Below, one piece after another: positions 16,158-39,262 of a stretch of 39,262 bases of DNA (its first letter is position 1; every line of letters begins with the position of its first letter). The notes beneath the pieces were generated by a model, which saw only the letters and a list, made by a program, of their open reading frames with translations, made no database searches and was not told the origin of the DNA. This DNA comes from a virus. Its lineage: Duplodnaviria; Heunggongvirae; Uroviricota; Caudoviricetes. The stretch is taken from IMG/VR virus record IMGVR_UViG_2513237200_000009; one strand, given 5' to 3'. The translations under genes were made by a program, and so were the position numbers.

Positions 16158-16503
16158 TCTCTGCTCCTGTTGATACGGAAAGGGAAACAGGCACACCGTT
16201 ATTCCGCCGCCCGGTCAGCTCCACCACCATAGAACCGTCAAAGTTGCTGTTGATGGTGATGGAATCCAGCGTCAGCCGTGGCTCCCAGCGACTCAGCGCC
16301 ACATACACTGCCGACATGACCTGCAGGCGTAATGCCGGATTTTGTGGCTGATCTATTAAAACCGACAGGAGGGAACCATATTCCCGGCGGGCAATGCGGC
16401 TACCCTGCGGTGTCAGCAGAATGTCCCGCACCGACTGGCGCAGATGATCAATATCAGTAATGACTTTGCCGCTGGTATTGTTCATCCCGCTATAAAGCGT
16501 CAT
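16144..16503 (-). CDS. W: baseplate wedge protein gpW
   Basis: 119 aa, overlaps J start and V end. Confidence 0.8.
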   Translation of the reverse strand: MTLYSGMNNTSGKVITDIDHLRQSVRDILLTPQGSRIARREYGSLLSVLIDQPQNPALRLQVMSAVYVALSRWEPRLTLDSITINSNFDGSMVVELTGRRNNGVPVSLSVSTGAENGSD

Positions 16504-17078
16504 ACCGGGCCTCCGGTTGTATCGCCGCCTTTCAGGACGCCAGTATGCTGATGCGCATCAACCACAATCCCGTTAGAACTCATCGCACCGCCGCCCTGGG
16601 TAACGCCACCATTGATCACTACTTCGCTGTTAATTCGCGTGCGGTCAGCCTCCAGCACAAACTCACTGGTTTTCATGGTGATATTGTCAGCGGCCTCAAT
16701 GACCATTGATTTGATGCCCCTTACATACCAGCGCCCGGTGGCGGGTTCGTATTCAAACCAGCTACCGTCAGGATGTTCTGTCACGCAGGCGTCCGCCGAC
16801 GTCGACGGTGGTGCGAACTGATTCGAATAGACAGCGGGCAGCGCAAAGGCAGTCTCCAGATTACCGCCCAGACTCAGCAGCACCACCTGCTCACCTTCCG
16901 ATGGTCGCCACCATGTGCGGGCATTACCGGCACGCAGCGTCAGCCAACTGATCCAGTTAGTTTCAAGGTCGCCCGTTTTCACCCGGCAAAGCCAGTTCTC
17001 CCGGTCCACTTCGGTGACTACACCAGTGCGGATCAGATTGGTGATAAGGCGCATGATTTCAGTCAGTTGTGCGTTCAT
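16500..17078 (-). CDS. V: baseplate spike/hub protein gpV
   Basis: 192 aa, position as P2 V. Confidence 0.8.
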   Translation of the reverse strand: MNAQLTEIMRLITNLIRTGVVTEVDRENWLCRVKTGDLETNWISWLTLRAGNARTWWRPSEGEQVVLLSLGGNLETAFALPAVYSNQFAPPSTSADACVTEHPDGSWFEYEPATGRWYVRGIKSMVIEAADNITMKTSEFVLEADRTRINSEVVINGGVTQGGGAMSSNGIVVDAHQHTGVLKGGDTTGGPV

Positions 17079-17124: not shown

Positions 17125-17142
17125 TGTGACATTAACTACACA
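17125..17142 (-). promoter_or_regulatory. TGT-N12-ACA dyad, possible late promoter element for V
   Basis: TGTgacattaactacACA centred about 55 bp upstream of the V start codon; spacing is shorter than at FI and O. Confidence 0.3.
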
Positions 17143-17146
17143 AAAA

Positions 17147-18070
17147 ATGACAACTAACACCAATACCCCAGAAGCAGCTGAGCAAGATAATATTGTCCCC
17201 ATGGATGCAATGAATGATCCCATCAATCCCCCACCTACAAAGAAGGAGAGGGATGAATACAAAAAAAAACAGCAAGAAAGAATTGGCAAATACGTCGTTG
17301 GTGGAACAGATTTGGGTGGAAACACCATAAGTAAAATTTATTCACGTGGGGATGAATATGTCATTTATGAAGTAGCCAATCTTCCGCCTCATGAGTCTAT
17401 GCTCGTGTTCATAGACTCAATCATTGAGGAGGATGACAGTAAGATTGATAGATATCATGCTTCAAAAGAGCACTTTGATGAGTTTATTTCACATTGCTAC
17501 AAATACAACTGCTCTTCTATTTATAAAAAAAGAGCAGCAACAGTTATGTCAGCAACAATACTTGGAAAAAATGATATAAACAAAAATAACTTCGCCGCAA
17601 TAAATAGAGACATTAAAAACGATTATGAAAACACAATGCTTGGAAGGAATTTATATCAATCAGGAGCCATAACTTTAGCATTGATATTCATCATCCTTGC
17701 ATTGATAACATATTTGGCTAGAGATTCTAATTTCATAAAAGCTAATCACTTTATTCCAGTGGTGTTATACGCCGCTTCCTTTGCTTCCATCGGGGGGTTT
17801 ATTTCTGTATCCCTAAAAATAAAAAGCCTCCATACAGACAGAGAACTAAAAAAGAAAACTTATTTCTTCTATGGTGCGGAGAGAATACTCCTTTCAATGA
17901 TGGCTGGCGTACTTGTATACTTTATGCTCAAGGGGAATATTATCTTCGGGTTTATGAATAATAGTAGTGACATCTCATTCTCCATTTATGTGATTTGTGC
18001 GCTTTCTGGATTCAGTGAAACATTGATACCGAATACATTGAGAAACCTTGAAACCAAATCCGAAATTTAA
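17147..18070 (+). CDS. hypothetical AT-rich membrane protein (cargo gene between V and S)
   Basis: polar N-terminal region then about four hydrophobic helices (AITLALIFIILALITYLA, FIPVVLYAASFASIGGFISVSL, ILLSMMAGVLVYFML, ISFSIYVICALSGFSETLI); opposite strand to the late genes; start uncertain (GTG at 17126 or ATG at 17147). Confidence 0.6.
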   Translation: MTTNTNTPEAAEQDNIVPMDAMNDPINPPPTKKERDEYKKKQQERIGKYVVGGTDLGGNTISKIYSRGDEYVIYEVANLPPHESMLVFIDSIIEEDDSKIDRYHASKEHFDEFISHCYKYNCSSIYKKRAATVMSATILGKNDINKNNFAAINRDIKNDYENTMLGRNLYQSGAITLALIFIILALITYLARDSNFIKANHFIPVVLYAASFASIGGFISVSLKIKSLHTDRELKKKTYFFYGAERILLSMMAGVLVYFMLKGNIIFGFMNNSSDISFSIYVICALSGFSETLIPNTLRNLETKSEI

Positions 18071-24075: not shown

Positions 24076-25842
24076 ATGAACACCACACTGACACCCGCAG
24101 ATCTCGATCCCCGTCGGCAGGCCATGCTGCTGTACTTTCAGGGATACCGCGTAGCCCGCATTGCTGAAATGCTGGGCGAGAAAGTTGCAACCGTTCACAG
24201 CTGGAAAAAACGCGACAAGTGGGGTGACTATGGGCCGCTGGATCAGATGCAGCTCACCACCGCCGCACGCTACTGCCAGCTCATTATGAAGGAGCACAAA
24301 GAAGGGAAAGATTTCAAAGAGATTGACCTGCTGGCGCGCCAGTCGGAGCGCCATGCGCGGATCGGCAAGTTTAACAATGGCGGCAACGAAGCCGACTTAA
24401 ACCCTAACGTCGCCAACCGCAACAAAGGCCCGCGCCGTCAGCCGGAAAAGAACGTTTTCACCGATGAACAGATTGAGAAGCTGGAAGAAATCTTCCATTC
24501 CTCCATGTTCAACTACCAGCGCCACTGGTGGGAAGCCGGAAAAACCAACCGCATCCGCAACCTGCTGAAGTCACGCCAGATCGGCGCGACCTTCTATTTT
24601 GCCCGTGAAGCCCTGATTGACGCCCTGCTAACCGGGCGTAACCAGATTTTCCTTTCCGCCAGCAAGGCACAGGCCCACGTCTTTAAGCAGTACATCATCG
24701 ACTTCGCCAAAGAAGTGGAGGTGGAGCTGAAAGGCGATCCGATGGTGCTTCCTAACGGGGCCACGCTGTACTTCCTCGGCACCAATGCCCGCACGGCCCA
24801 GAGTTACCACGGCAACCTGTATCTGGATGAATATTTCTGGATACCGAAATTCCAGGAGCTGCGCAAAGTGGCTTCCGGTATGGCTATTCACAAGAAATGG
24901 CGACAGACCTATTTTTCCACGCCATCCAGTCTGACACACAGTGCTTATCCGTTCTGGTCCGGTGCGCTGTTCAACCGTGGGCGCAACAGAGCCGATAAGG
25001 TGGACATCGACCTGTCCCACAGCAATCTGGCCCCCGGCCTGCTGTGCGCAGACGGGCAATACCGCCAGATAGTCACCGTGGAAGATGCGGTGCGCGGCGG
25101 CTGTAACCTGTTCGACCTTGACCAGTTGCGCATGGAGTACAGCCCTGACGAATACCAGAACTTGCTGATGTGCGAGTTCGTGGACGATCTCGCGTCCGTG
25201 TTCCCGCTCAGCGAATTGCAGGCGTGCATGGTGGACAGCTGGGAAGTCTGGACCGACTTTCATGCACTGGCCCTGCGCCCGTTTGGCTGGCGCGAAGTGT
25301 GGATCGGTTATGACCCGGCAAAAGGTACGCAGAACGGCGACAGCGCCGGATGCGTGGTGGTGGCACCGCCAGCCGTGCCAGGCGGTAAGTTCCGCATTCT
25401 TGAGCGTCACCAGTGGCGCGGAATGGACTTTCGCGCCCAGGCTGACGCCATCAAAAAACTGACCGAACAGTACAACGTGACCTATATCGGCATCGACTCA
25501 ACCGGCGTTGGTCACGGGGTTTACGAGAACGTGAAAGCGTTTTTTCCTGCCGTCCGGGAGTTTGTCTACAACCCCAACGTTAAAAACGCCCTGGTACTCA
25601 AGGCCTACGACATTATCAGCCACCGCCGTCTTGAGTTTGACGCCGGGCACACCGACATTGCGCAGTCATTCATGGCAATCCGTCGCGCCACCACCGCCAG
25701 CGGCAACCGCCCGACCTATGAAGCCAGCCGCAGCGAAGAAGCCAGCCATGCCGATCTGGCCTGGGCAACAATGCACGCACTGTTTAACGAACCACTGCAG
25801 GGCGAGTCCGCCAATACCAGCAATATTGTGGAGATTTTTTGA
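24076..25842 (+). CDS. P: terminase large (ATPase) subunit gpP
   Basis: 588 aa, P2 P size; divergent from O. Confidence 0.9.
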   Translation: MNTTLTPADLDPRRQAMLLYFQGYRVARIAEMLGEKVATVHSWKKRDKWGDYGPLDQMQLTTAARYCQLIMKEHKEGKDFKEIDLLARQSERHARIGKFNNGGNEADLNPNVANRNKGPRRQPEKNVFTDEQIEKLEEIFHSSMFNYQRHWWEAGKTNRIRNLLKSRQIGATFYFAREALIDALLTGRNQIFLSASKAQAHVFKQYIIDFAKEVEVELKGDPMVLPNGATLYFLGTNARTAQSYHGNLYLDEYFWIPKFQELRKVASGMAIHKKWRQTYFSTPSSLTHSAYPFWSGALFNRGRNRADKVDIDLSHSNLAPGLLCADGQYRQIVTVEDAVRGGCNLFDLDQLRMEYSPDEYQNLLMCEFVDDLASVFPLSELQACMVDSWEVWTDFHALALRPFGWREVWIGYDPAKGTQNGDSAGCVVVAPPAVPGGKFRILERHQWRGMDFRAQADAIKKLTEQYNVTYIGIDSTGVGHGVYENVKAFFPAVREFVYNPNVKNALVLKAYDIISHRRLEFDAGHTDIAQSFMAIRRATTASGNRPTYEASRSEEASHADLAWATMHALFNEPLQGESANTSNIVEIF

Positions 25843-26867
25843 TGGGAAAGAGTAAGAAGAACCGCGCTGCGGCGACGAAACAGATCCAGCATAAAAACCA
25901 GACTTCAGCCGAAGCATTCAGCTTCGGTGATCCCGTTCCTGTTCTGGACCGCCGCGAACTGCTGGACTATGTGGAATGCGTACAGATGGACCGTTGGTAT
26001 GAGCCACCAGTGAGTTTCGACGGCCTGGCGCGAACCTTCCGCGCCGCCGTACACCACAGCTCACCGATTGCAGTAAAGTGCAACATTCTGACCAGCACCT
26101 ATATCCCTCACCCGTTGCTCAGCCAGCAGGCTTTTTCACGTTTTGTGCAGGACTATCTGGTATTTGGTAATGCCTACCTGGAGAAACGCACGAACCGCTT
26201 CGGTGAAGTTATCGCCCTTGAACCTGCCCTGGCAAAATATACCCGACGCGGATTAGACCTGGATACCTACTGGTTTGTGCAATACGGTATGGCAACCCAG
26301 CCGTATCAGTTCACGAAAGGCAGCATCTTTCATCTGATGGAACCGGATATTAATCAGGAGATCTACGGCCTGCCTGGCTATCTTTCTGCTATTCCATCCG
26401 CTCTGCTCAACGAGTCCGCCACGCTGTTCCGCCGGAAGTATTACATTAACGGCAGTCATGCAGGCTTCATCATGTACATGACCGATGCCGCGCAAAACCA
26501 GGAGGATGTGAACAACCTCCGCAACGCAATGAAAAGCGCCAAAGGACCGGGTAACTTCCGCAACCTGTTTATGTACTCGCCTAACGGCAAAAAGGATGGG
26601 CTTCAGATCATTCCTCTGTCAGAAGTCGCGGCGAAGGATGAGTTTCTGAATATCAAGAACGTGAGCCGGGACGACATGATGGCGGCGCACCGCGTACCGC
26701 CGCAAATGATGGGGATTATGCCTAGCAATGTCGGGGGGTTTGGGGATGTAGAGAAAGCTAGTAAGGTATTTGTGCGGAATGAGCTTTTACCTTTGCAAAA
26801 ATTGATGCAAGCGCTTAATTGTTGGCTGGATGAAAATATAATTACATTTAATAAATATATTTTGTAG
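25839..26867 (+). CDS. Q: portal protein gpQ
   Basis: 342 aa, overlaps P stop, P2 Q size. Confidence 0.9.
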   Translation: MMGKSKKNRAAATKQIQHKNQTSAEAFSFGDPVPVLDRRELLDYVECVQMDRWYEPPVSFDGLARTFRAAVHHSSPIAVKCNILTSTYIPHPLLSQQAFSRFVQDYLVFGNAYLEKRTNRFGEVIALEPALAKYTRRGLDLDTYWFVQYGMATQPYQFTKGSIFHLMEPDINQEIYGLPGYLSAIPSALLNESATLFRRKYYINGSHAGFIMYMTDAAQNQEDVNNLRNAMKSAKGPGNFRNLFMYSPNGKKDGLQIIPLSEVAAKDEFLNIKNVSRDDMMAAHRVPPQMMGIMPSNVGGFGDVEKASKVFVRNELLPLQKLMQALNCWLDENIITFNKYIL

Positions 26868-26882
26868 TTCCTGTTTATAATT

Positions 26883-26912
26883 AACGCCTGCCTGAGCAGG
26901 CGTTCTTTCATT
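26883..26912. terminator. hairpin terminator between convergent Q and the DUF262 gene
   Basis: aacgcctgc ctga gcaggcgtt followed by ctttcattt. Confidence 0.55.
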
Positions 26913-28689
26913 TAAAACGTGTTGCAATATCTGCTGCTTCGATAACTGTTGCTTTTACGGTATTATCGCCAGCACGATAATAAATATCCCCATCATAACT
27001 AGAATAAGATGCTAGAAGTGGAATTGTAATAACTATAACTCCATAACCATAAAAGTCATTATAGTCAATCAAACTCACCACTTGTGATTTAAGAGGCTCA
27101 CTCAAAGCAGATTTTTTCAACTCATCGCAAAAACGTCTATAATATTCTTCCATTGATATGCCGAGTTTAATAGCTTCTCTTTTAACACCAACAACACTTC
27201 TCTCACCAACTACATGTGCATCTATATCATCAAGCTCTTTTACTCTACTTGTATCACTTGGTTTATCTGTTACACCAAGCAATAACTTACCAACTACACC
27301 GTTCTTGTTACCTTTACCGATGTTAGCAATAGCACAAATTGTGGAGAATATTTTCTCATGAATGCCATCATCAATAGTTCGCTCTCCGCCTAACATCAAC
27401 AAACCCTGTTTCAGTTCATAATTTGCAAGCTCTATTTCAGATCTTCGTAAAATATCCTCAATATCCACCGTATTGTGAGAATTATAGATATGACTGCTAT
27501 CGGCGCTATCAATAAAGTTATCTTTAATCAAGCCTATGATAGAATTAATATTCTTTCTTCTCTCTTCCCCACCAGTAGCAGATCTTTTAGTATCTAGTCG
27601 AGTGACTATATTATTAAGATTGTCTTTTACACCTTTATAATTATTAATCTTCTTATTTTCTTTAATGAGTAATTCATGAAAAGCAATAAATAACACAGCA
27701 AATATGGCTGGGAAAGCATTTGTAGTACGTTTAGTAAAGATTAAATCCCTGAGTTTAATTTCACCGTCACTATTACATACTTTTGTTATTTCCTGGATGC
27801 AGAATTTAAACTCTTCTGCAAATTTTCCTTCACCATAAACATTAATAGCAGAGCTAATACGACTATACTCTTCATCTTCATTATTATAAATCTGATCAAG
27901 CGCATCTTTGGAACGATCTATTAACTTACCTCCAACAATACAAGCTGCTATATCTGCAATGCATTGCTCATCCATACTGTCACGAAGGTCTGTTGAACGT
28001 AAGATCCCATGTTTTACCCAAAATACTTCTTCCGACTGAATTTGGTAACCATGTTTAGTTAGTGGCAAATCAATGCTAATAGACGGCATTTGCTCTAAAA
28101 GCAATATGTCGTCAGATACATCCCCCCTGATAGAACAGGCAATATCCCTAACCATATTTGAAAATTTATTTTGTATACCAGCCTGGCGCCTTTCTTGATC
28201 ACTAAGTCTATGCCCGTATGTATTAATTCTATCAAAAACATCATTTATTTCGTTCTCAGTCGCATTACGCATAATGGACATTGCAAGAGAATAATCCAAT
28301 AACTGAGTAACCTCACGCTGACTTAAAAGATTATCAGCTTTCACTGCAACAAACTTACCTTCATCCGCTCGATTTTTCGCTGTGGGAAAAGCGTCCAGAT
28401 TAAAACGTTTTCCATCAAGTGATTCATATCCTGTTTCGATGAAAGACATTATTGCATGTAATCTTTGTAGGCCATCAATTATTTCATATGTGCCAGGATC
28501 ATTTTCCCTTTCCGCGAGAAGAACTGCAGGAATTGGATATTTTTTTTGAATGGATTCAATTAATTTTTGTTTCTCTATTGCAGTCCAAACTAATTTTCGT
28601 TGATAACGTCTATTAACAAATATCTTACCTTCAGTAAACCATGAATAAATAGTTTGTATAGAAGTTGTTTGCGGTAATAGTTCAGCCAT
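26908..28689 (-). CDS. DUF262 (ParB-like nuclease / GmrSD N-terminal domain) protein, candidate defence gene
   Basis: 593 aa, AT-rich; N-terminal ...FVNRRYQRKLVWT...YEIIDGLQRLHAI... (DGxQR motif); C-terminal region unassigned. Confidence 0.75.
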   Translation of the reverse strand: MAELLPQTTSIQTIYSWFTEGKIFVNRRYQRKLVWTAIEKQKLIESIQKKYPIPAVLLAERENDPGTYEIIDGLQRLHAIMSFIETGYESLDGKRFNLDAFPTAKNRADEGKFVAVKADNLLSQREVTQLLDYSLAMSIMRNATENEINDVFDRINTYGHRLSDQERRQAGIQNKFSNMVRDIACSIRGDVSDDILLLEQMPSISIDLPLTKHGYQIQSEEVFWVKHGILRSTDLRDSMDEQCIADIAACIVGGKLIDRSKDALDQIYNNEDEEYSRISSAINVYGEGKFAEEFKFCIQEITKVCNSDGEIKLRDLIFTKRTTNAFPAIFAVLFIAFHELLIKENKKINNYKGVKDNLNNIVTRLDTKRSATGGEERRKNINSIIGLIKDNFIDSADSSHIYNSHNTVDIEDILRRSEIELANYELKQGLLMLGGERTIDDGIHEKIFSTICAIANIGKGNKNGVVGKLLLGVTDKPSDTSRVKELDDIDAHVVGERSVVGVKREAIKLGISMEEYYRRFCDELKKSALSEPLKSQVVSLIDYNDFYGYGVIVITIPLLASYSSYDGDIYYRAGDNTVKATVIEAADIATRFK

Positions 28690-28823
28690 GAAACAAATTC
28701 CTTCTTCTGGATAGAATTTTATAATATAGAAACTGAAAAGGTTAAGTTACCATCAAAAATGATGATAGCAACAAAAAGATACCATTTTGTAATTTTTTGT
28801 TCAGATTTTCATATCAGAGCGCG

Positions 28824-28842
28824 CTCGTATCCCCGCCACGCC
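28824..28842 (-). promoter_or_regulatory. candidate cos cohesive-end sequence
   Basis: minus strand GGCGTGGCGGGGATACGAG resembles the remembered 186/P2 cos 5' ends (GGCGTGGCGGGGAAAGCAT / GGCGAGGCGGGGAAAGCAC) over the first 13 nt. Confidence 0.3.
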
Positions 28843-29221
28843 TGCCCGCTTTATGCAGTGGTTTTCATGCACATGCATGACATGAGCAAAAGCCCGCCAG
28901 TTCTGGCGGATCTGAGCAAAGACGATCCTCAATCGATCATGCGATTTCATGCAGCATAGTCATGCACTGTCAAGGAAGTGAAAATCCGTATCTGAATGGC
29001 CACTTGAAAAACGGATCATACGGGTTTACAAAGATGAATGTTCGCTGTGAACGGGAAGCGGAAGTTAACTTTCAGATAACATAATCCATATGCACGAGAA
29101 CCTCTAAAATAGAATGGGACACCTAAGTGGGGTACTTACAACGATTCTTTCCATATTCACAGTTAACACTCTGTTTGGCGTATTTTTATTCAAATAGCAA
29201 ACACCAATAAAAGGAGTTTCC

Positions 29222-29557
29222 ATGAACAATATTCCCCCTATACCACAGTTAGGAATTTATGTCTCAAAAATCGATCCCACCCTACGTATCACTGTAACCG
29301 ATGTTGATATTGTTGATGGTGAGGATGATTCTCCTGATGATGAATTGTTTTATTTAGTCCACTGGATCGAGGGGGAAGATGAAAGTGATATGACAGCAAT
29401 GGGATTTGAGCTAGACCCAGTAGAGTGGCAGGCTTTCGTTGAATCTGAGCAATTAGTGTTTGAGCGTGATCCGTACATGGATTCAATCCCCGAAAATTCA
29501 AACTTGGCAAAGATTCGGGATTTTCTCATGAAGACTAAACAGAATGATCATTCGTAA
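29222..29557 (+). CDS. small highly acidic hypothetical protein
   Basis: 111 aa with strong SD AAGGAG; about 26 Asp/Glu against about 7 Lys/Arg. Confidence 0.65.
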   Translation: MNNIPPIPQLGIYVSKIDPTLRITVTDVDIVDGEDDSPDDELFYLVHWIEGEDESDMTAMGFELDPVEWQAFVESEQLVFERDPYMDSIPENSNLAKIRDFLMKTKQNDHS

Positions 29558-29749
29558 GTGTAAGCATCCATCAGGAAAATGGTTTTGTAAGTGAATCATC
29601 AACTTTTAGAGAGTCTCAGACACTCCCACTTCTGCTTCTGACACAAAGCGGACGATCACTTATCAAAATAACCGCCCACCTTACGCCTTATTTCACTCAT
29701 TGCCCAAACTAGCCCCCATCAGAATGAATCCTCCTGGGGGCAACATTTC

Positions 29750-29983
29750 TTAATGCAGCCAGCTGTCGTCCTCCCACACCTTCTGCATAATTTTCATCAC
29801 TTGTTTTCTTTCTTCATCCAGTTGCAGTCCGGTTAGTTCCACACCGTTAGAGCTACCTTTGCGAATGCGAATTACCGTTTTGGGATACAGGGGGCGCAGA
29901 TTGCGGTAAAGCTCGGATTCAAGTGCGTCCAAGGTAGACTGGCTAATCTTCTGCTCTTTATCGATCATTATTTCAATGCGCAT
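29750..29983 (-). CDS. DinI-family protein
   Basis: MRIEIMIDKEQKISQSTLDALESELYRNL...VIRIRKGSSNGVELTGL...VWEDDSWL resembles E. coli DinI; SD GAGGTG. Confidence 0.75.
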   Translation of the reverse strand: MRIEIMIDKEQKISQSTLDALESELYRNLRPLYPKTVIRIRKGSSNGVELTGLQLDEERKQVMKIMQKVWEDDSWLH

Positions 29984-29993
29984 AAAAGTCACC

Positions 29994-30182
29994 TCAGCTG
30001 ATGACATCCATTGAGCGGTTGTATTCGTGGCTTCTGATTTTTGCCATGAGTTCATCAGTCAATTCAGAAACCCACTGCAGAGCCAGCCCCTTCTCTTCAT
30101 CACTACACTCACTAGCCGCTACAAGCTTAAGAAAAAAATCAATGCGCTGGAGCTTCAAAGACTCCAAAAAATAGTCCTGCAT
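29994..30182 (-). CDS. small protein, first gene of the LexA-controlled operon (possible Tum-like antirepressor)
   Basis: 62-aa ORF starting 40 bp downstream of the LexA box; translationally coupled to the DinI-like gene. Confidence 0.5.
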   Translation of the reverse strand: MQDYFLESLKLQRIDFFLKLVAASECSDEEKGLALQWVSELTDELMAKIRSHEYNRSMDVIS

Positions 30183-30222
30183 CTTTCCTCCTATGACACC
30201 AAAACAATACTGTATACATAAC

Positions 30223-30242
30223 CACTGTTTATATTTACAGTA
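30223..30242. promoter_or_regulatory. LexA operator (SOS box)
   Basis: cACTGTttatatttACAGta fits CTGT-N8-ACAG with an AT-rich spacer; directly upstream of the minus-strand operon. Confidence 0.6.
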
Positions 30243-30334
30243 TATAATAATCTTACTGATGTAAAACGTTTTTTTACGTTCATCGGCCTGATATGCCTGG
30301 TATTATTAAGAGCACGAATTGTTAACCCGCGTAA

Positions 30335-32749
30335 TTAATACAGGTTCCGCCACTTATCATCTTCCTTCAGACGCTGGTTCCGATAGAAGATACGCAGGCC
30401 TGCTCCTGACGGAATACTGCCGCCGCGAAGGAGCAAATCGACTTCTTTCTCGCTGCCATCAAATCCCCTGGACTTCAGTTCATAGACGAGCTGCTGTCGC
30501 TGATGGTCTGTAATTCGCTGTTTGTAGTCTTTACGCCGTTTCGGTTTCACCTGGCGTAACCTTGCAGCCAGTTCCCGGCGCTCTTTTTTGCTCATACTGT
30601 GCAGGTAATCGTGCAACTCCTTGTCATTCATACGGGTAATATCCGTTCTGGAGTCCCCATCAGCTGATTTGTCTTTCCCTTGTTGGTTCAAATTTTCAGC
30701 AAGGGGACAGTTATTGCCACGAGTCCAAGGGGCGCAAGCGCCCTGGTCGGCTACCGCCTCCTGAACGTCAACGGCCTTACGAACCATTTTCCACTTCACT
30801 GCATGAGTGCAGATCTTGCCCTCTGAAATGGGTGACCAGATGCCATAAATACGAATACCGTGATCGCCATAGGCAGTCGGCTCTTCGTTAATTTCATAAG
30901 CTGTTCTGATAAGGTGATATTTGCGGGGAACCAGTACGCCGCCCTGCTTCATGATGTAGGTGGCAAAACAACCAGCATCAGCAGCAGCCAGGATGGCATC
31001 AAGACGCGGATCATCCAGTACCGGCGCACCTGCTTTTTTGTCACCCTGTTGCCTTGCCGCCTGACCAGCCAGCAATCGCAGTTCACGGTAAGCCTGGCGC
31101 CCCGGAATACCAAAGAAGCGGAACTGCTGAACACGATGCAGAGACGCCCAGGCATTAACGTATTCGGCGTTATCACGCAGGGATTTACCCGTTTCCTTGC
31201 TGATCTCGCCAGCCAGACCACGCCCGTCAATGTTCTTACTGATGTATTTTGCGATGTAGCTTGTCGGCGTTCCTTTGCGTGGGTTTATCAGCTCAGACTT
31301 AAAGCGTGGGCCCGTGTTATTGCCCAGCTCCTCGCGGTCTTCACGGATGGCAAACTTACGCAACAATGCAGTAATGGCGCGGCGGTCTTTTTTGCGCATG
31401 AAACACATGAGATGCCAGTGCACAGTACCGTCATGGTGCGGCTCAGCCACCCGTACGCCATACCAGCGCAACCCGGTTTTGTGCATCGCCTTACGAAATG
31501 CAGCAAACATGCCGACCAGATAATCGCTGCTTTGTCTTACCGTCGCATTTGTCCAGGTCGGGTTGGGCCTGCCGTTATTGAGCGTGGAATGGAAACGTGA
31601 CGGACATGTGATGGTGTAGAAAACGGCGCAGTCACCGCGCATTTCCGCGATAAGCTCCAGACCTTTAACGCAGGCCATCATCTCATTGCGGCGATGTGCC
31701 GGGTTGCTGCTGCTGGCGTTTACCACATCTTCCATATCCAGCGTGTCTCCGTCTTCGTTCACCAGTTCATGAGAACGGAAAAACTCCAGCGACTTGCGGC
31801 GCTGCTCACGTTTATGCATCACGGCTTCATAGCTGACATAGGGAGATGCTTTTTTGCTGACCAGACAGACAGCACGCAACTGCTCTTCCCGCCATTCGCA
31901 ACGCATCTTCCACAATTTTCGATACCACCAGTCGGCGCAAAGCATACGTGCCAGCGAACCCGGTATGAGTTCATAGGGCACAGGTTTGCGGCGGTTTCTT
32001 TTCCGACGAAGTTTCTCAAACGCAGGCGGGATAACATCCAGACGCAGGGTTTCCGCTGCCACCTTTTCCCATGTCTTGCGGATTTCTTCTGGCTTTACGT
32101 CATCGTTGGTATACAAATCACCACAAGCGGCCTCAAGACACATGCTCATATGCGCAGCTACCAGGGTGGACAGGCGTTTCACCTGATCCTGACTCATTTC
32201 AGGCAGGATCAGCAGGCCCTCCAGCCCTTGATGGCTTGCCATAAAACGGAAAGAAGTAGATAGCTGACTGTCGCGTACACAATCCAGTCGCTCCAGACAT
32301 GGCTTAATCGTCTCACGCAAATAGCGGGAATAAGCCTTTGGCCTGCCCAGGCTGCTGAAGTATTCGATACGTTGCATCAGCGGCTTGCTGATGTGGGTGG
32401 GCTGGGCGCTGACGTCCGCCAGAATGACCATGTCCGGGTTAAAACGCTGCTGCTCATGCGCCAGCTTTGCCCGACTAATGAGCTTATCCTGCTCCATTTC
32501 GCGCTGGACAGGATCACGGGATTCATTAAAGAAATAACGCTCCCAGACCTGTTCACTCAATTCCTCGCGGCGCAGCTGTTCCTGCTCGTTATCGGCAGCA
32601 TACAGAGTGATCAGGTTTGAAAGCGCAGAAACCGGCGCAACTTCCGCCGGGTCCAGATAAGGGTTTATGGCCTTTTTCGGGCCGTTCCATGAAAATGCTG
32701 CAGCGGCCTCGTTAAAGCCGCTAGAGTCGCTCATATCGGCATGACTCAT
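30335..32749 (-). CDS. A: replication initiation protein gpA
   Basis: 804-aa ORF in the early operon, position as P2/186 A. Confidence 0.8.
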
Positions 32750-35967: not shown

Positions 35968-36113
35968 GGTGCAACATTCCTTCTTTAATTCGGCTTGTGG
36001 CGAGCCGTTGTTTATCGTGATTAGTTGTGAAGGCTCCAAAAGAAGACTTCGAGGTCAACTTTAAGATCGCTTTTGGAATCTGTCAATGCAATTTAGATTG
36101 TTTTGGAGGACTC

Positions 36114-36677
36114 TTGAATTTCAATAGCGGCGGAAAGAAAGTGATTGAACGTTTGGTTGAGGCGTATGGTTTCACCACTCGTCAGGCCCTTTGCGACCAC
36201 TTAGGGGTTTCAAAGAGCACAATGGCAACCCGCTACATGCGTGACATTTTTCCAGCAGATTGGGTACTTCAATGCGTTGTAGAAACTGGTACTTCAATTG
36301 ATTGGCTGGTATCAGGGAAAGGTGAGTTAAAAACCACAGCAGTCAACTCTTTGGTAGACGTTGAAACTCGCGAACTAAAAAATGGAGAGGCTATTGCACT
36401 TGGAACGCACAAGATTGATCCAGTCTTTCTTCTCAATGAAATAAAATCTGCATTAGCGATAAAAATTAACCAACATGTTTACATTTGTGACCGAGAAGAC
36501 ACTACCATTTCTGATGGTCAATGGTTGGTGGATATAGAAGGAAAACTGAGTATTAAAAAAATCAATTTGATACCAGTCAAAAGAGCAATGGTATCTGGGG
36601 ATGGTTTTTCATTTGAATGTGATATTAGTGATATAAAACCTATAGCTAAGGTTCATACCGTAATCAGTGAGGCTTAA
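36114..36677 (+). CDS. cI: immunity repressor CI (186 CI family)
   Basis: ..ERLVEAYGF...QWLVDIEG...FECDISDIK parallels remembered 186 CI; probable TTG start after GGAGGA. Confidence 0.75.
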   Translation: MNFNSGGKKVIERLVEAYGFTTRQALCDHLGVSKSTMATRYMRDIFPADWVLQCVVETGTSIDWLVSGKGELKTTAVNSLVDVETRELKNGEAIALGTHKIDPVFLLNEIKSALAIKINQHVYICDREDTTISDGQWLVDIEGKLSIKKINLIPVKRAMVSGDGFSFECDISDIKPIAKVHTVISEA

Positions 36678-38129
36678 ATGGATATTGAGTGGAATTGGGA
36701 TCAAGATGACGAATTTCTTGGTGAAAAATTACCTGCAGATACATTGGACAGAAAAAAGTACGCAAAATATCTTTATGAAATCTGTGCTGCACGCGGTGCT
36801 AAATCCAATCTCGTAGTTAACATTAATGCGGAATGGGGGGCTGGAAAAACATATTTTACTAAACGCCTAGCCAAGACAATTTCCCACTACCATCCCACAA
36901 TATACATTGATGCTTGGAAAGAAGATTTTACTGAAGACCCATTGCTCACAGTATTTAGTGGAATTAAAGATCAATTATCTGGTCAATCTGATAGCTTTAC
37001 TGCTTTAATCAATTCAACAATTGAGAATGTCGGTCCTTTGCTAAAAACAGCGGCACCAGTTATTATTGATGGATTAATACAAAAGTTCACAGGGGTTGAC
37101 TCCTTTTCTAACCTAACTAAAGACTTATCATCTAAGCTAATAGAAATACACGCAGAAAAATCAACGAGAATAGAGACAGTAAGAAAAGGAATTAGTCGTT
37201 GGGTTGAATTCATTGGGCGAAAAGATGGAATAGATAAAGAGCTTCCATTATTTATAATAATTGATGAACTTGATAGATGTAGGCCCGATTTTTCCATTAG
37301 TCTTTTAGAAATCTCCAAGCATATTTTTAACATCCCTGGCGTAGTATTTATTATTGCCACTGACACCCAACAATTACAGCATTCAATAAAAGTTATATAT
37401 GGCACTAATTTTTCAGCAAGTCATTATCTAAGCAGGTTTTTTGACCGTCGATTCCTTCTCCCAACGCCAGAATACAAAGACTTACTATTAACAAAAACAG
37501 GTGAAAACATAATTTCGGAATTTAATTCTTTACGTGAAAAATTAATTCCATGCCCACAAGACATCACATCATTTGTTAAAAATTGTTCATCCATATTATT
37601 ATCCATAAAAATAAACATCAGAGACGCTGTAAAAATATACGAGAGGCTAATAGACATACTTATCACGTCAAATAAAACATTTGACCCCAATCTAATGTTG
37701 ATATTATCTGCATTTAATTTCAAAGATCATGATGTATATGCAAAAATAAAATCAAAAGAAAAGCTAATTCCTAGTCCTCTCAACACAGAAATAGATTTAT
37801 CATTTGATTTATCTTATGAAACTACACAAGTCAAGTACTTCCAAGCTAATGGTGGTGTTTATAGTAATACGTATAAACAAAAAGAAATTTCAACAAATGT
37901 TCTATTTTACATAGAGACTGCTTGGAACACCTTAACGATAGCAAGAACCGCACCTGTTGGCACGCGACCTTACAATACTCCAGAACTTTGGATGGAAGGA
38001 GAGTTGTCTCAGGAGGAATCATTAGCGAACTTTCTCAAAATGGGATACGCCAAAAGCCGGTACAATGAAAGTGAACTAAAAATTCATCAATATTTCGATT
38101 TAATTGAACTGAGCACAACATTTGATTGA
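36678..38129 (+). CDS. KAP-family P-loop NTPase (PifA-like), candidate anti-phage/exclusion protein
   Basis: 483 aa, AT-rich; Walker A AEWGAGKT with the KAP-typical Trp, Walker B IIIDELDRC; ATG immediately follows the cI stop (TAAATG). Confidence 0.8.
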   Translation: MDIEWNWDQDDEFLGEKLPADTLDRKKYAKYLYEICAARGAKSNLVVNINAEWGAGKTYFTKRLAKTISHYHPTIYIDAWKEDFTEDPLLTVFSGIKDQLSGQSDSFTALINSTIENVGPLLKTAAPVIIDGLIQKFTGVDSFSNLTKDLSSKLIEIHAEKSTRIETVRKGISRWVEFIGRKDGIDKELPLFIIIDELDRCRPDFSISLLEISKHIFNIPGVVFIIATDTQQLQHSIKVIYGTNFSASHYLSRFFDRRFLLPTPEYKDLLLTKTGENIISEFNSLREKLIPCPQDITSFVKNCSSILLSIKINIRDAVKIYERLIDILITSNKTFDPNLMLILSAFNFKDHDVYAKIKSKEKLIPSPLNTEIDLSFDLSYETTQVKYFQANGGVYSNTYKQKEISTNVLFYIETAWNTLTIARTAPVGTRPYNTPELWMEGELSQEESLANFLKMGYAKSRYNESELKIHQYFDLIELSTTFD

Positions 38130-38209: not shown

Positions 38210-39262
38210 ATGGCAGTACGAAAACTCGACACAGGTAAATGGATATGCGAATGCTACCCCGCCGGGCGCAGCGGACGGCGTGTGCGTAAGCAATTCGCCA
38301 CCAAAGGTGAAGCGTTAGCATTTGAACGGCACATAATGGAGGAAACTGAAGCTAAGCCCTGGCTGGGTGAATCGGTAGATCGCCGAACTCTGAAAGACGT
38401 CGTTGAACTCTGGTTCAAACTGCACGGCAAATCTCTGACCGCTGGCGAGCATGTTTACGACAAGCTGATCCTGATGGTCGAAGCTCTCGGAAATCCCCTC
38501 GCCACCGATTTAACATCCAAAATGTTCGCGCACTATCGCGATAAACGCCTGACAGGAGAGATCTACTTCAGCGAGAAATGGAAGAAAGGAGCAAGCCCGG
38601 TCACTATTAATCTGGAGCAAAGCTATCTAAGTAGTGTTTTTAGCGAACTATCCCGCCTGGGCGAATGGTCGTATCCGAACCCACTGGAGAACATGCGAAA
38701 ATTCACCATCGCAGAAAAAGAGATGGCATGGCTTACCCATGAGCAGATTGTTGAATTGCTGGCTGATTGCAAACGTCAGGACCCAATTCTGGCACTGGTA
38801 GTTAAGATATGCTTAAGCACAGGCGCACGCTGGCGTGAAGCCGTAAATCTTACCCGCTCGCAGGTGACCAAATACCGAATTACCTTTGTAAGAACGAAGG
38901 GGAAGAAAAACAGAAGCATCCCTATCAGTAAAGAGCTTTACGAAGAGATCATGGCGCTTGATGGGTTCAATTTCTTCACAGACTGCTATTTTCAATTTTT
39001 ATCCGTGATGGAAAAAACGTCTATCGTGCTGCCTCGCGGTCAACTGACACACGTTCTGCGCCATACGTTTGCGGCGCACTTCATGATGTCGGGTGGAAAC
39101 ATCCTGGCCTTACAAAAAATTCTCGGACACCACGATATAAAAATGACTATGCGTTATGCGCATCTGGCACCGGATCATCTGGAAACGGCGCTCCGTTTCA
39201 ATCCTCTGGCAACATTGCCAAGTGGCGACAAAGTGGCGGCAGCGGTTGGCATTACCCCGTAA
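38210..39262 (+). CDS. int: tyrosine integrase (186/P2-type)
   Basis: 350 aa; MAVRKLDTGKWICECYP... and C-terminal ...LTHVLRHTFAAHFMMSGGNILALQKILGHHDIKMTMRYAHL catalytic region. Confidence 0.9.
   Translation: MAVRKLDTGKWICECYPAGRSGRRVRKQFATKGEALAFERHIMEETEAKPWLGESVDRRTLKDVVELWFKLHGKSLTAGEHVYDKLILMVEALGNPLATDLTSKMFAHYRDKRLTGEIYFSEKWKKGASPVTINLEQSYLSSVFSELSRLGEWSYPNPLENMRKFTIAEKEMAWLTHEQIVELLADCKRQDPILALVVKICLSTGARWREAVNLTRSQVTKYRITFVRTKGKKNRSIPISKELYEEIMALDGFNFFTDCYFQFLSVMEKTSIVLPRGQLTHVLRHTFAAHFMMSGGNILALQKILGHHDIKMTMRYAHLAPDHLETALRFNPLATLPSGDKVAAAVGITP

Follow-up and report, generated by a model that had tools for sequence, protein, structure and literature searches.

A DUF262-Schlafen fusion protein as a likely single-gene anti-phage defence in the portal-cos slot of a P2/186-like prophage

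A complete gene on the minus strand at 26908..28689 of the window, i.e. the whole stretch of 39,262 nucleotides of viral DNA that was analysed, encodes a 593-amino-acid DUF262-helical-Schlafen protein. We consider it likely that this gene is a single-gene anti-phage defence of the pSlfn7 (DUF262-Slfn) family, a moron that occupies the portal-cos slot within the gpA-gpQ hotspot and works in the following manner. In the lysogen, the gene would be expressed from its own promoter. The DUF262 NTPase, together with the ParBDB-type helical domain, would serve as an NTP-dependent sensor or switch, most likely responding to phage DNA or another nucleic-acid cue, and would license tRNA cleavage by the C-terminal Schlafen/AlbA_2 nuclease (E420/E425/K427/D475). 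Such cleavage would curtail both translation and the phage burst and would protect the lysogen and its prophage from competing phages. The gene is already known as a catalogued pSlfn7-family member in a published hotspot; the locus is thus a further example of the cos-proximal defence hotspot of P2-like phages and adds little that is new.

RESULTS

Gene, flanks and cos

The reading frame, which the initial annotation had proposed as a 593-aa ORF, is real: in the ORF list it begins with an ATG on the minus strand and ends with a stop codon at 26908-26910, with an AAGGA ribosome-binding site some 10 nt ahead of the start. The GC content of the gene is 0.347 (portal gene, 0.50; terminase, 0.57; replication gene A, 0.53), and a chance origin of a 1.8-kb open frame in such AT-rich DNA is unlikely. 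The protein has the RefSeq accession WP_000818977.1, and a 100% identical 593-aa protein is encoded on the chromosome of Escherichia coli W, where it is labelled 'GmrSD restriction endonuclease domain-containing protein'. The P2/186-like prophage in the window is likewise 100% identical to E. coli W over the region. PHROG 26759, annotated as 'function unknown', spans the full 593-aa protein.

Portal gene Q (25839..26867, plus strand) is convergent with the DUF262-Schlafen gene, and replication gene A is located at 30335-32749, giving the order Q, 593-aa ORF, cos, A. The cos core was assigned to 28824..28842 on the minus strand (reverse complement GGCGTGGCGGGGATACGAG) by alignment to P2 and 186. 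The 186 cos begins with the 12 nt GGCGTGGCGGGG, which are common to all seven 186-like prophages examined and are present within the window core in reverse complement, as CCCCGCCACGCC at 28831-28842; conservation is limited to these 12 nt. A search with the P2 cos 19-mer, allowing up to 3 mismatches, gave no match, and the core was found by reading the sequence along with the P2/186 alignment; the cut sites are assumed to be those of P2/186. The core lies 134-142 bp upstream of the ATG of the 593-aa gene. The distance from the portal stop to cos is 168 bp in P2 (cosL) and 177 bp in 186. Since this gap is merely 168-177 bp, the window prophage holds about 1.8 kb extra, which bears out the initial view that the portal gene of P2 ends close to cos and that a gene of this size here is cargo.

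A strong GC-rich hairpin with a 9-bp stem was predicted by folding between the convergent stop codons (26883-26904, −15 to −17 kcal/mol; z = −3.6 on the plus strand and −5.1 on the minus strand), with the U-run on the plus-strand, portal side. P2 tQ and 186 tW are found at the corresponding position but differ from it in sequence. Because this is the one hairpin between the stops of the portal and 593-aa genes, and the U-tract lies on the side of the portal gene rather than on that of the DUF262 gene, it could at most serve both genes, as a shared or bidirectional terminator; thus, of the proposal that the gene converges on Q with its own hairpin terminator, the convergence holds and the 'own' is doubtful. 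On the minus strand, another terminator-like hairpin was observed just past cos (28910-28893). A consensus scan also gave a sigma-70-like promoter candidate (TTAACC-18-TAAAAT) at 28716..28745 on the minus strand, between cos and the gene and 27-56 bp 5' of its ATG; since sigma-70-like sites in this region are no commoner than in shuffled sequence, the assignment is only tentative. The 28910-28893 hairpin and this weak promoter-like site fit an independently transcribed unit.

Exchangeable cargo at a defence hotspot

The portal gene ends in ~20 variable, AT-rich codons (26808..26867, plus strand) with a GC content of 0.25. In seven cargo-bearing prophages this portal end has a GC content of 0.22-0.33, versus 0.50-0.53 in P2/186, and it is probably the left junction of an exchangeable cargo cassette. 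Of 5,426 complete E. coli genomes, 1,229 contain the portal segment adjoining the gene, 1,251 the cos flank and 18 the gene itself, so that the gene is missing from more than 98% of the prophages with the same portal type. In five relatives sampled over the range of portal identity, the portal-cos slot was always filled by other cargo of 1.4-2.8 kb oriented towards the portal gene: a retron St85 reverse transcriptase and effector (L009), an HNH endonuclease gene between two hypothetical genes (L010), an AIPR-family protein (L011), a 2-kb gene for an ATP-binding-domain protein with a small gene (L012) and a 463-aa protein of unknown function (L013). A second variable slot was seen on the opposite side of cos. 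Because only 18 of about 1,230 portal-type genomes have the 593-aa gene and five relatives have different cargo in its place, it is a piece of exchangeable cargo rather than part of the phage core. The idea of independent AT-rich cargo is thereby upheld, and the comparison of the cos-Q junction across relatives, suggested along with it, revealed alternative cargo in 5/5 cases and not a core gene conserved in all of them.

Rousset et al. 2022 (PMC9122126) described a defence hotspot in P2-like phages, the gpA-gpQ interval near cos, and the 593-aa gene is situated there, between gene A and portal gene Q and next to cos. The main text of a 2026 NAR survey of P2/P4 hotspots makes no mention of Schlafen, DUF262 or Menshen.

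Three domains in one polypeptide

The N-terminal part (aa ~10-171; 28177..28662, minus strand) is a ParB-like DUF262 (GmrSD_N) NTPase domain, assigned by Pfam and by motifs. The Pfam GmrSD_N/DUF262 model matched aa 16-170 with an E-value of 1.6e-22 and 81 bits (cut-off 33.2). The three motifs that define the ParB-like DUF262 domain, QRxxxW, DGxQR and FxxxN (PMC12065111), are present as Q30-R31...W35 (motif I), D72-G-L-Q-R76 (motif II; nt 28462-28476) and F152...N156 (motif III), and all of them are invariant in an alignment of 44 relatives with about 60% identity. The string IIDGLQRLHAI, on which the initial annotation had based a DUF262/ParB-like signature, is present in the protein, and the signature was confirmed by the Pfam match and the invariant D72-G73-L74-Q75-R76. 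DUF262 was detected by Pfam in 42/42 relatives, fused in one polypeptide. The sole result of the NCBIfam search was a weak ParB signal; structure comparison supported an N-terminal ParB fold, with GmrSD, BrxU and SspE as the structures that best match the N-terminal half.

The middle part (aa 172-404; 27478..28176, minus strand) is a helical domain of the NsnA-C or 'ParBDB' type, as judged from homology and an AF2 model that is mostly helical. The PADLOC NsnA profile matched aa 7-383 with its positions 49-370 of 385 (E = 8e-31). NsnA consists of a ParB-DUF262 domain and a 'ParBDB' DNA-binding helical domain, which also occurs in GmrSD, SspE and DndB (PMC12065111), and aa 172-404, which come after DUF262 in the window protein as well, can be regarded as a putative DNA-binding domain.

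The C-terminal part (aa 405-593; 26911..27477, minus strand) is a Schlafen/AlbA_2 nuclease domain. It bears E420-x4-E425-x-K427 (E420-LANY-E425-L-K427; nt 27409-27432, minus strand), which conforms to the Schlafen catalytic motif, defined as Ex4(E/D)xK (PMC13056530). E420, E425 and K427 are strictly invariant in the 44 aligned sequences, as is D475 in the string GVTD. D475 presumably corresponds to the third of the acidic residues in the active site of mammalian Schlafens. The Pfam SLFN_AlbA_2 score of the window protein is 19.8 bits, under the gathering threshold of 25.3, which homologues of 60-62% identity pass; the domain was matched in 40/42 relatives. A search of the C-domain profile against PDB sequences, which used sequence only, gave nothing significant; the domain was therefore identified as Schlafen from its homologues, by fold comparison and by its motif. 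The matches of the whole protein in a phmmer search of the PDB, ribosomal protein bL9 and an HNH-named chain, were rejected as chance level (per-domain E above 7). A Schlafen/AlbA_2-fold nuclease domain, the Ex4(E/D)xK motif and the fusion to DUF262, i.e. the features expected of pSlfn7, were all found. The initial annotation had taken the C-terminal 300 aa to match nothing recognisable and perhaps to be a new effector; they are instead an NsnA-type helical domain and a Schlafen/AlbA_2 domain, and both this architecture and the exact protein have been published. The DUF1524/HNH domain that was to be sought in the C-terminal half was absent from the window protein (E ≤ 1) and from 42 relatives (E ≤ 1e-3), indicating that the protein is not of the GmrSD type.

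Distribution and conservation of the family

More than 2,000 homologues of about 60% identity were found in Proteobacteria and Cyanobacteria. The family comprises 273 clusters (50% identity, E < 1e-30), mostly of 580-620 aa, in which the full-length architecture is kept, and relatives are present on 625 plasmid records. A tblastn search against 50,697 deposited phage genomes gave no homologue. The homologues in Pluralibacter (89% identity) and in Achromobacter are each inserted alone among housekeeping genes, without a conserved neighbour. In the window, too, no partner gene was found, the neighbours of the 593-aa gene being the portal gene and cos; the DUF262-Schlafen gene is an autonomous single gene.

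The three domains are conserved to different degrees (mean identity to the window protein = 71, 59 and 50%, invariant columns = 36, 21 and 16%, for DUF262, the middle helical domain and the Slfn domain, respectively). The gradient of the DUF262-Slfn family, with DUF262 most and Slfn least conserved, is the opposite of the pattern of pSlfn5, in which the sensor is variable (PMC13056530), so that the sensor/effector logic may differ from that of pSlfn5. Judged from these alignments, the gradient suggests that the sensed cue may be invariant, e.g. DNA, rather than a fast-evolving phage protein.

DISCUSSION

Proposed sensor and effector

From homology with GmrSD, SspE and NsnA, we infer that the DUF262 and helical domains would constitute a nucleic-acid sensor and an NTP-dependent switch. 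Homology with bacterial and human Schlafens in turn predicts that the AlbA_2 domain is an RNase effector, with tRNA as the most likely substrate. Ig-fused RorSlfn5, a pSlfn5 protein, is a phage-triggered tRNase (PMC13056530); tRNA cleavage has been demonstrated for this protein and not for a DUF262 fusion, while an anti-phage phenotype has been demonstrated for the homologue from strain UC4224, by analogy with which the window orthologue is presumably active in defence as well.

How the switch is thrown is a finer point. The DUF262/ParB NTPase and helical domains may directly sense nucleic acid, for example by clamping incoming phage DNA, and thereby switch on the Schlafen tRNase; we put this forward as a tentative and rather doubtful extension. 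If true, the protein would be a bacterial counterpart of human SLFN11, which is activated by ssDNA, and the gradient from 71% to 50% would mean that an invariant feature of infection is sensed, with the RNase diversifying in its substrate or escaping phage inhibitors.

Among the alternatives to a tRNase-based defence, the best surviving one retains a defence nuclease and changes its substrate to rRNA, mRNA or single-stranded DNA, or has it act in abortive infection via general RNA degradation. Mammalian SLFN13 and SLFN14 also cut rRNA, Slfn is the least conserved domain of the family, which is compatible with divergent substrates, and substrate specificity was demonstrated only for the other fusion, pSlfn5. 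On the other hand, bacterial and human Schlafen/SAMD9 enzymes, which have the same catalytic motif, have been shown to act on tRNA (PMC13056530), and we consider a different substrate improbable.

Somewhat less probable still is type IV restriction of the GmrSD/BrxU kind, in which DUF262 would recognise modified DNA of phages, and the cutting of DNA would fall to the C-terminal domain instead of a DUF1524 HNH nuclease. Such a function is in keeping with the RefSeq name of the window protein, which is the same 'GmrSD' label as in E. coli W; against it, DUF1524/HNH was found in 0/42 family members, the C-domain bears the Schlafen RNase motif Ex4ExK, and the homologue EcoSlfn7 is strongest against T7, the DNA of which is not hypermodified. 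Assignment to the GmrSD/BrxU-type enzymes was accordingly rejected, since DUF262 is present and DUF1524/HNH is not, and the RefSeq-style label 'GmrSD restriction endonuclease' is hereby corrected.

It is very unlikely that the roles of the two ends are exchanged, i.e. that the nuclease or effector activity resides in the ParB-like DUF262 and that AlbA_2 merely binds nucleic acid, as in its older Pfam name 'putative DNA-binding domain'. Some ParB-fold proteins do show nuclease activity, DUF262 is the most conserved domain, and JGI annotations label the C-terminus 'Putative DNA-binding domain'. Strict invariance of E420, E425, K427 and D475 is nevertheless what is predicted of a catalytic site, and DUF262 of GmrSD and SspE is an NTPase and sensor, not a nuclease (PMC12065111). 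Finally, a non-defence gene, be it a cos-linked phage function (ParB-like partition or a packaging accessory) or a decaying remnant, would agree with the N-terminal ParB fold and with a location that adjoins cos in P2-like prophages and a P4-like satellite, always oriented away from cos, but is highly improbable given that more than 98% of same-portal-type prophages have unrelated cargo instead, that solitary chromosomal and plasmid copies occur far from any phage, that the ORF is intact with every motif invariant, and that a homologue has a defence phenotype.

Comparison with known systems

One known counterpart of the tRNase-based defence proposed here is system #114 of the P2 hotspot, 'DUF262/AlbA_2', listed with 27 loci in Table S5 of Rousset et al. 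2022 (Cell Host Microbe, PMC9122126); its amino acid sequence is identical to that of the window protein, and it comes from the same gpA-gpQ hotspot. System #54 of the P4 hotspot (PMC9122126, Table S1) is a P4-satellite version with 62% identity to the window protein. Both were catalogued in that study by Pfam domains only, and DUF262 is absent from its table of tested systems. E. coli W, a strain used in laboratories and in industry, and its derivatives carry this orthologue, which could affect their phage sensitivity.

Perez Taboada et al. 2026 (Nat Microbiol, PMC13056530) distinguished 55 architectures among prokaryotic Schlafens, the DUF262-Slfn fusions (pSlfn7) being one of them, and EcoSlfn7, a DUF262-Slfn protein of E. 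coli UC4224, reduced the plating of many coliphages and lowered the EOP of T7 538-fold (PMC13056530). The only UC4224 homologue found by nucleotide BLAST was WP_028985442.1, a DUF262/AlbA_2 protein of 589 aa with 60% identity to the window protein over the full length, the gene of which is flanked by cos and the portal gene in a 186-like prophage, i.e. at the same position as the window gene; no second DUF262 gene was found in the 100 kb scanned of the 112-kb plasmid pUC4224_1. Judging from the strain name, EcoSlfn7 is probably WP_028985442.1. With this identification, EcoSlfn7 and the window protein are alike in their three-domain architecture, length (589 versus 593 aa), Ex4ExK and DGxQR; however, 40% of the residues differ, and the phage range may differ as well. 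Their Slfn domains are 53% identical, with a 4-residue insertion near G458-G467.

Other DUF262 systems share the front half of the protein and part from it at the effector. GmrSD, BrxU and SspE resemble the window protein in having a DUF262 NTPase at the N-terminus and a helical domain behind it, but they carry a DUF1524/HNH nuclease where the window protein has a Schlafen/AlbA_2 RNase-type effector. The profile of Menshen NsnA (Millman 2022) matches the N-terminal 383 aa, a module that is a proposed DNA sensor (PMC12065111); however, Menshen NsnABC has a separate NsnB ATPase and NsnC effector gene, whereas the effector of the window protein is fused in cis. Menshen was rejected as an assignment on the grounds that only the NsnA-like part is present, genes for an NsnB ABC-ATPase and NsnC are not adjacent, and homologues elsewhere are solitary. 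PD-T4-2 was likewise rejected, since PD-T4-2_A matches the DUF262 part only (aa 14-184, E = 2.4e-18) and the B partner gene is absent.

The AlbA_2 domains of human SLFN11, SLFN12, SLFN5 and SAMD9 have a sequence identity of 10-18% to that of the window protein. The latter has a single AlbA_2 lobe, whereas the N-domain of mammalian Schlafens is two-lobed, and its sensor is a ParB-like NTPase, in contrast to the helicase of human SLFN proteins and the multidomain array of SAMD9.

Two cargo slots separated by cos

The published defence hotspot between gpA and gpQ of P2-like prophages (Rousset 2022) is really two independent slots with cos between them, which in the window correspond to a portal-side slot (26868-28823) and an A-side slot (28843-30334). 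Portal-side cargo was present in 5/5 sampled relatives, and three of the five carried additional variable genes on the A side, preceding the conserved block of DinI, a 62-aa gene and A. This A-side cargo consisted of SIR2 with an ATP-binding protein in the first, an RNase A-like protein with an immunity protein in the second, and one hypothetical in the third.

On the portal side, the portal gene ends in ~20 codons (26808-26867 in the window) that are AT-rich and variable in sequence. Their GC content was 0.22-0.33 in all cargo-bearing 186-like prophages (7/7: the window, the further prophage L002 and the five relatives L009-L013), and their sequence differed across the same seven, whereas P2 and 186, in which cargo is absent on the portal side, showed a GC content of 0.50-0.53 at the portal 3' end. 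The exchangeable cassette therefore seems to have one junction within the portal gene, past the conserved VFVRNEL.PLQ string, and its other junction at cos.

The A side of cos in the window holds a 111-aa, very acidic ORF (WP_001059831; 29222-29557, + strand), for which searches of Pfam and PADLOC gave no match and which matched PHROG 17127, a family of unknown function. This ORF recurs beside DinI with several differing partners (RVT_1, AAA_13; Rousset Table S5) and is therefore independent of the DUF262 gene. Immediately on the A side of cos lies a terminator-like GC-rich hairpin on the minus strand (28893-28910), CCGCCAGAACTGGCGG followed by CTTTTGC; its string CCCGCCAGAACTGGCGGG is also present in UC4224, the E. 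coli strain with a 60%-identical homologue at the same prophage position. Such a hairpin would halt minus-strand transcripts coming from the DinI/A side ahead of cos and the DUF262 gene.

Other AT-rich genes in the prophage

A 483-aa KAP-family P-loop NTPase gene (36678-38129, + strand, GC 0.31-0.36) is flanked by the CI repressor (36027-36677) and integrase (38210-39262) genes, and its product matched the PADLOC defence candidate PDC-S20 (E 4e-82), with weaker matches to PifA and QatA; this gene is likely a second defence moron of the prophage. Within an island of GC 0.34-0.39, a 314-aa ORF (17126-18070, + strand) adjoins the gpV baseplate spike gene (16500-17078, - strand), and gave no match in Pfam, PADLOC or PHROGs. 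In its position, this ORF resembles the AT-rich orf30 insertion of P2.

Copies elsewhere and conservation along the protein

E. coli Ec-FL1-1X has a P4-like satellite whose psu-integrase hotspot carries a DUF262-Slfn gene (L003:7749-9767) with a product 62% identical to the window protein. This gene starts ~250 bp from the satellite cos core (GGCGAGGCGGGG) and is oriented away from cos, the same arrangement relative to cos as in P2-like prophages. The 38% divergence of this copy fits the published view that defence-gene exchange between P2 and P4 almost never occurs. Among plasmids, relatives were found in 625 records (near full length in 143), mostly as genes of ~30% identity carried by conjugative plasmids of E. 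coli. Despite carriage of the gene on prophages and satellites, none of the 50,697 deposited phage genomes contained a homologue at E<=1e-10.

In the alignment of the window protein with its relatives (A1, aa 1-593), mean identity fell from 71% in DUF262 to 59% in the middle domain and 50% in Slfn, so that the presumed sensor is better conserved than the presumed effector. This gradient of the DUF262-Slfn protein is the opposite of that reported for pSlfn5, another prokaryotic Schlafen architecture.
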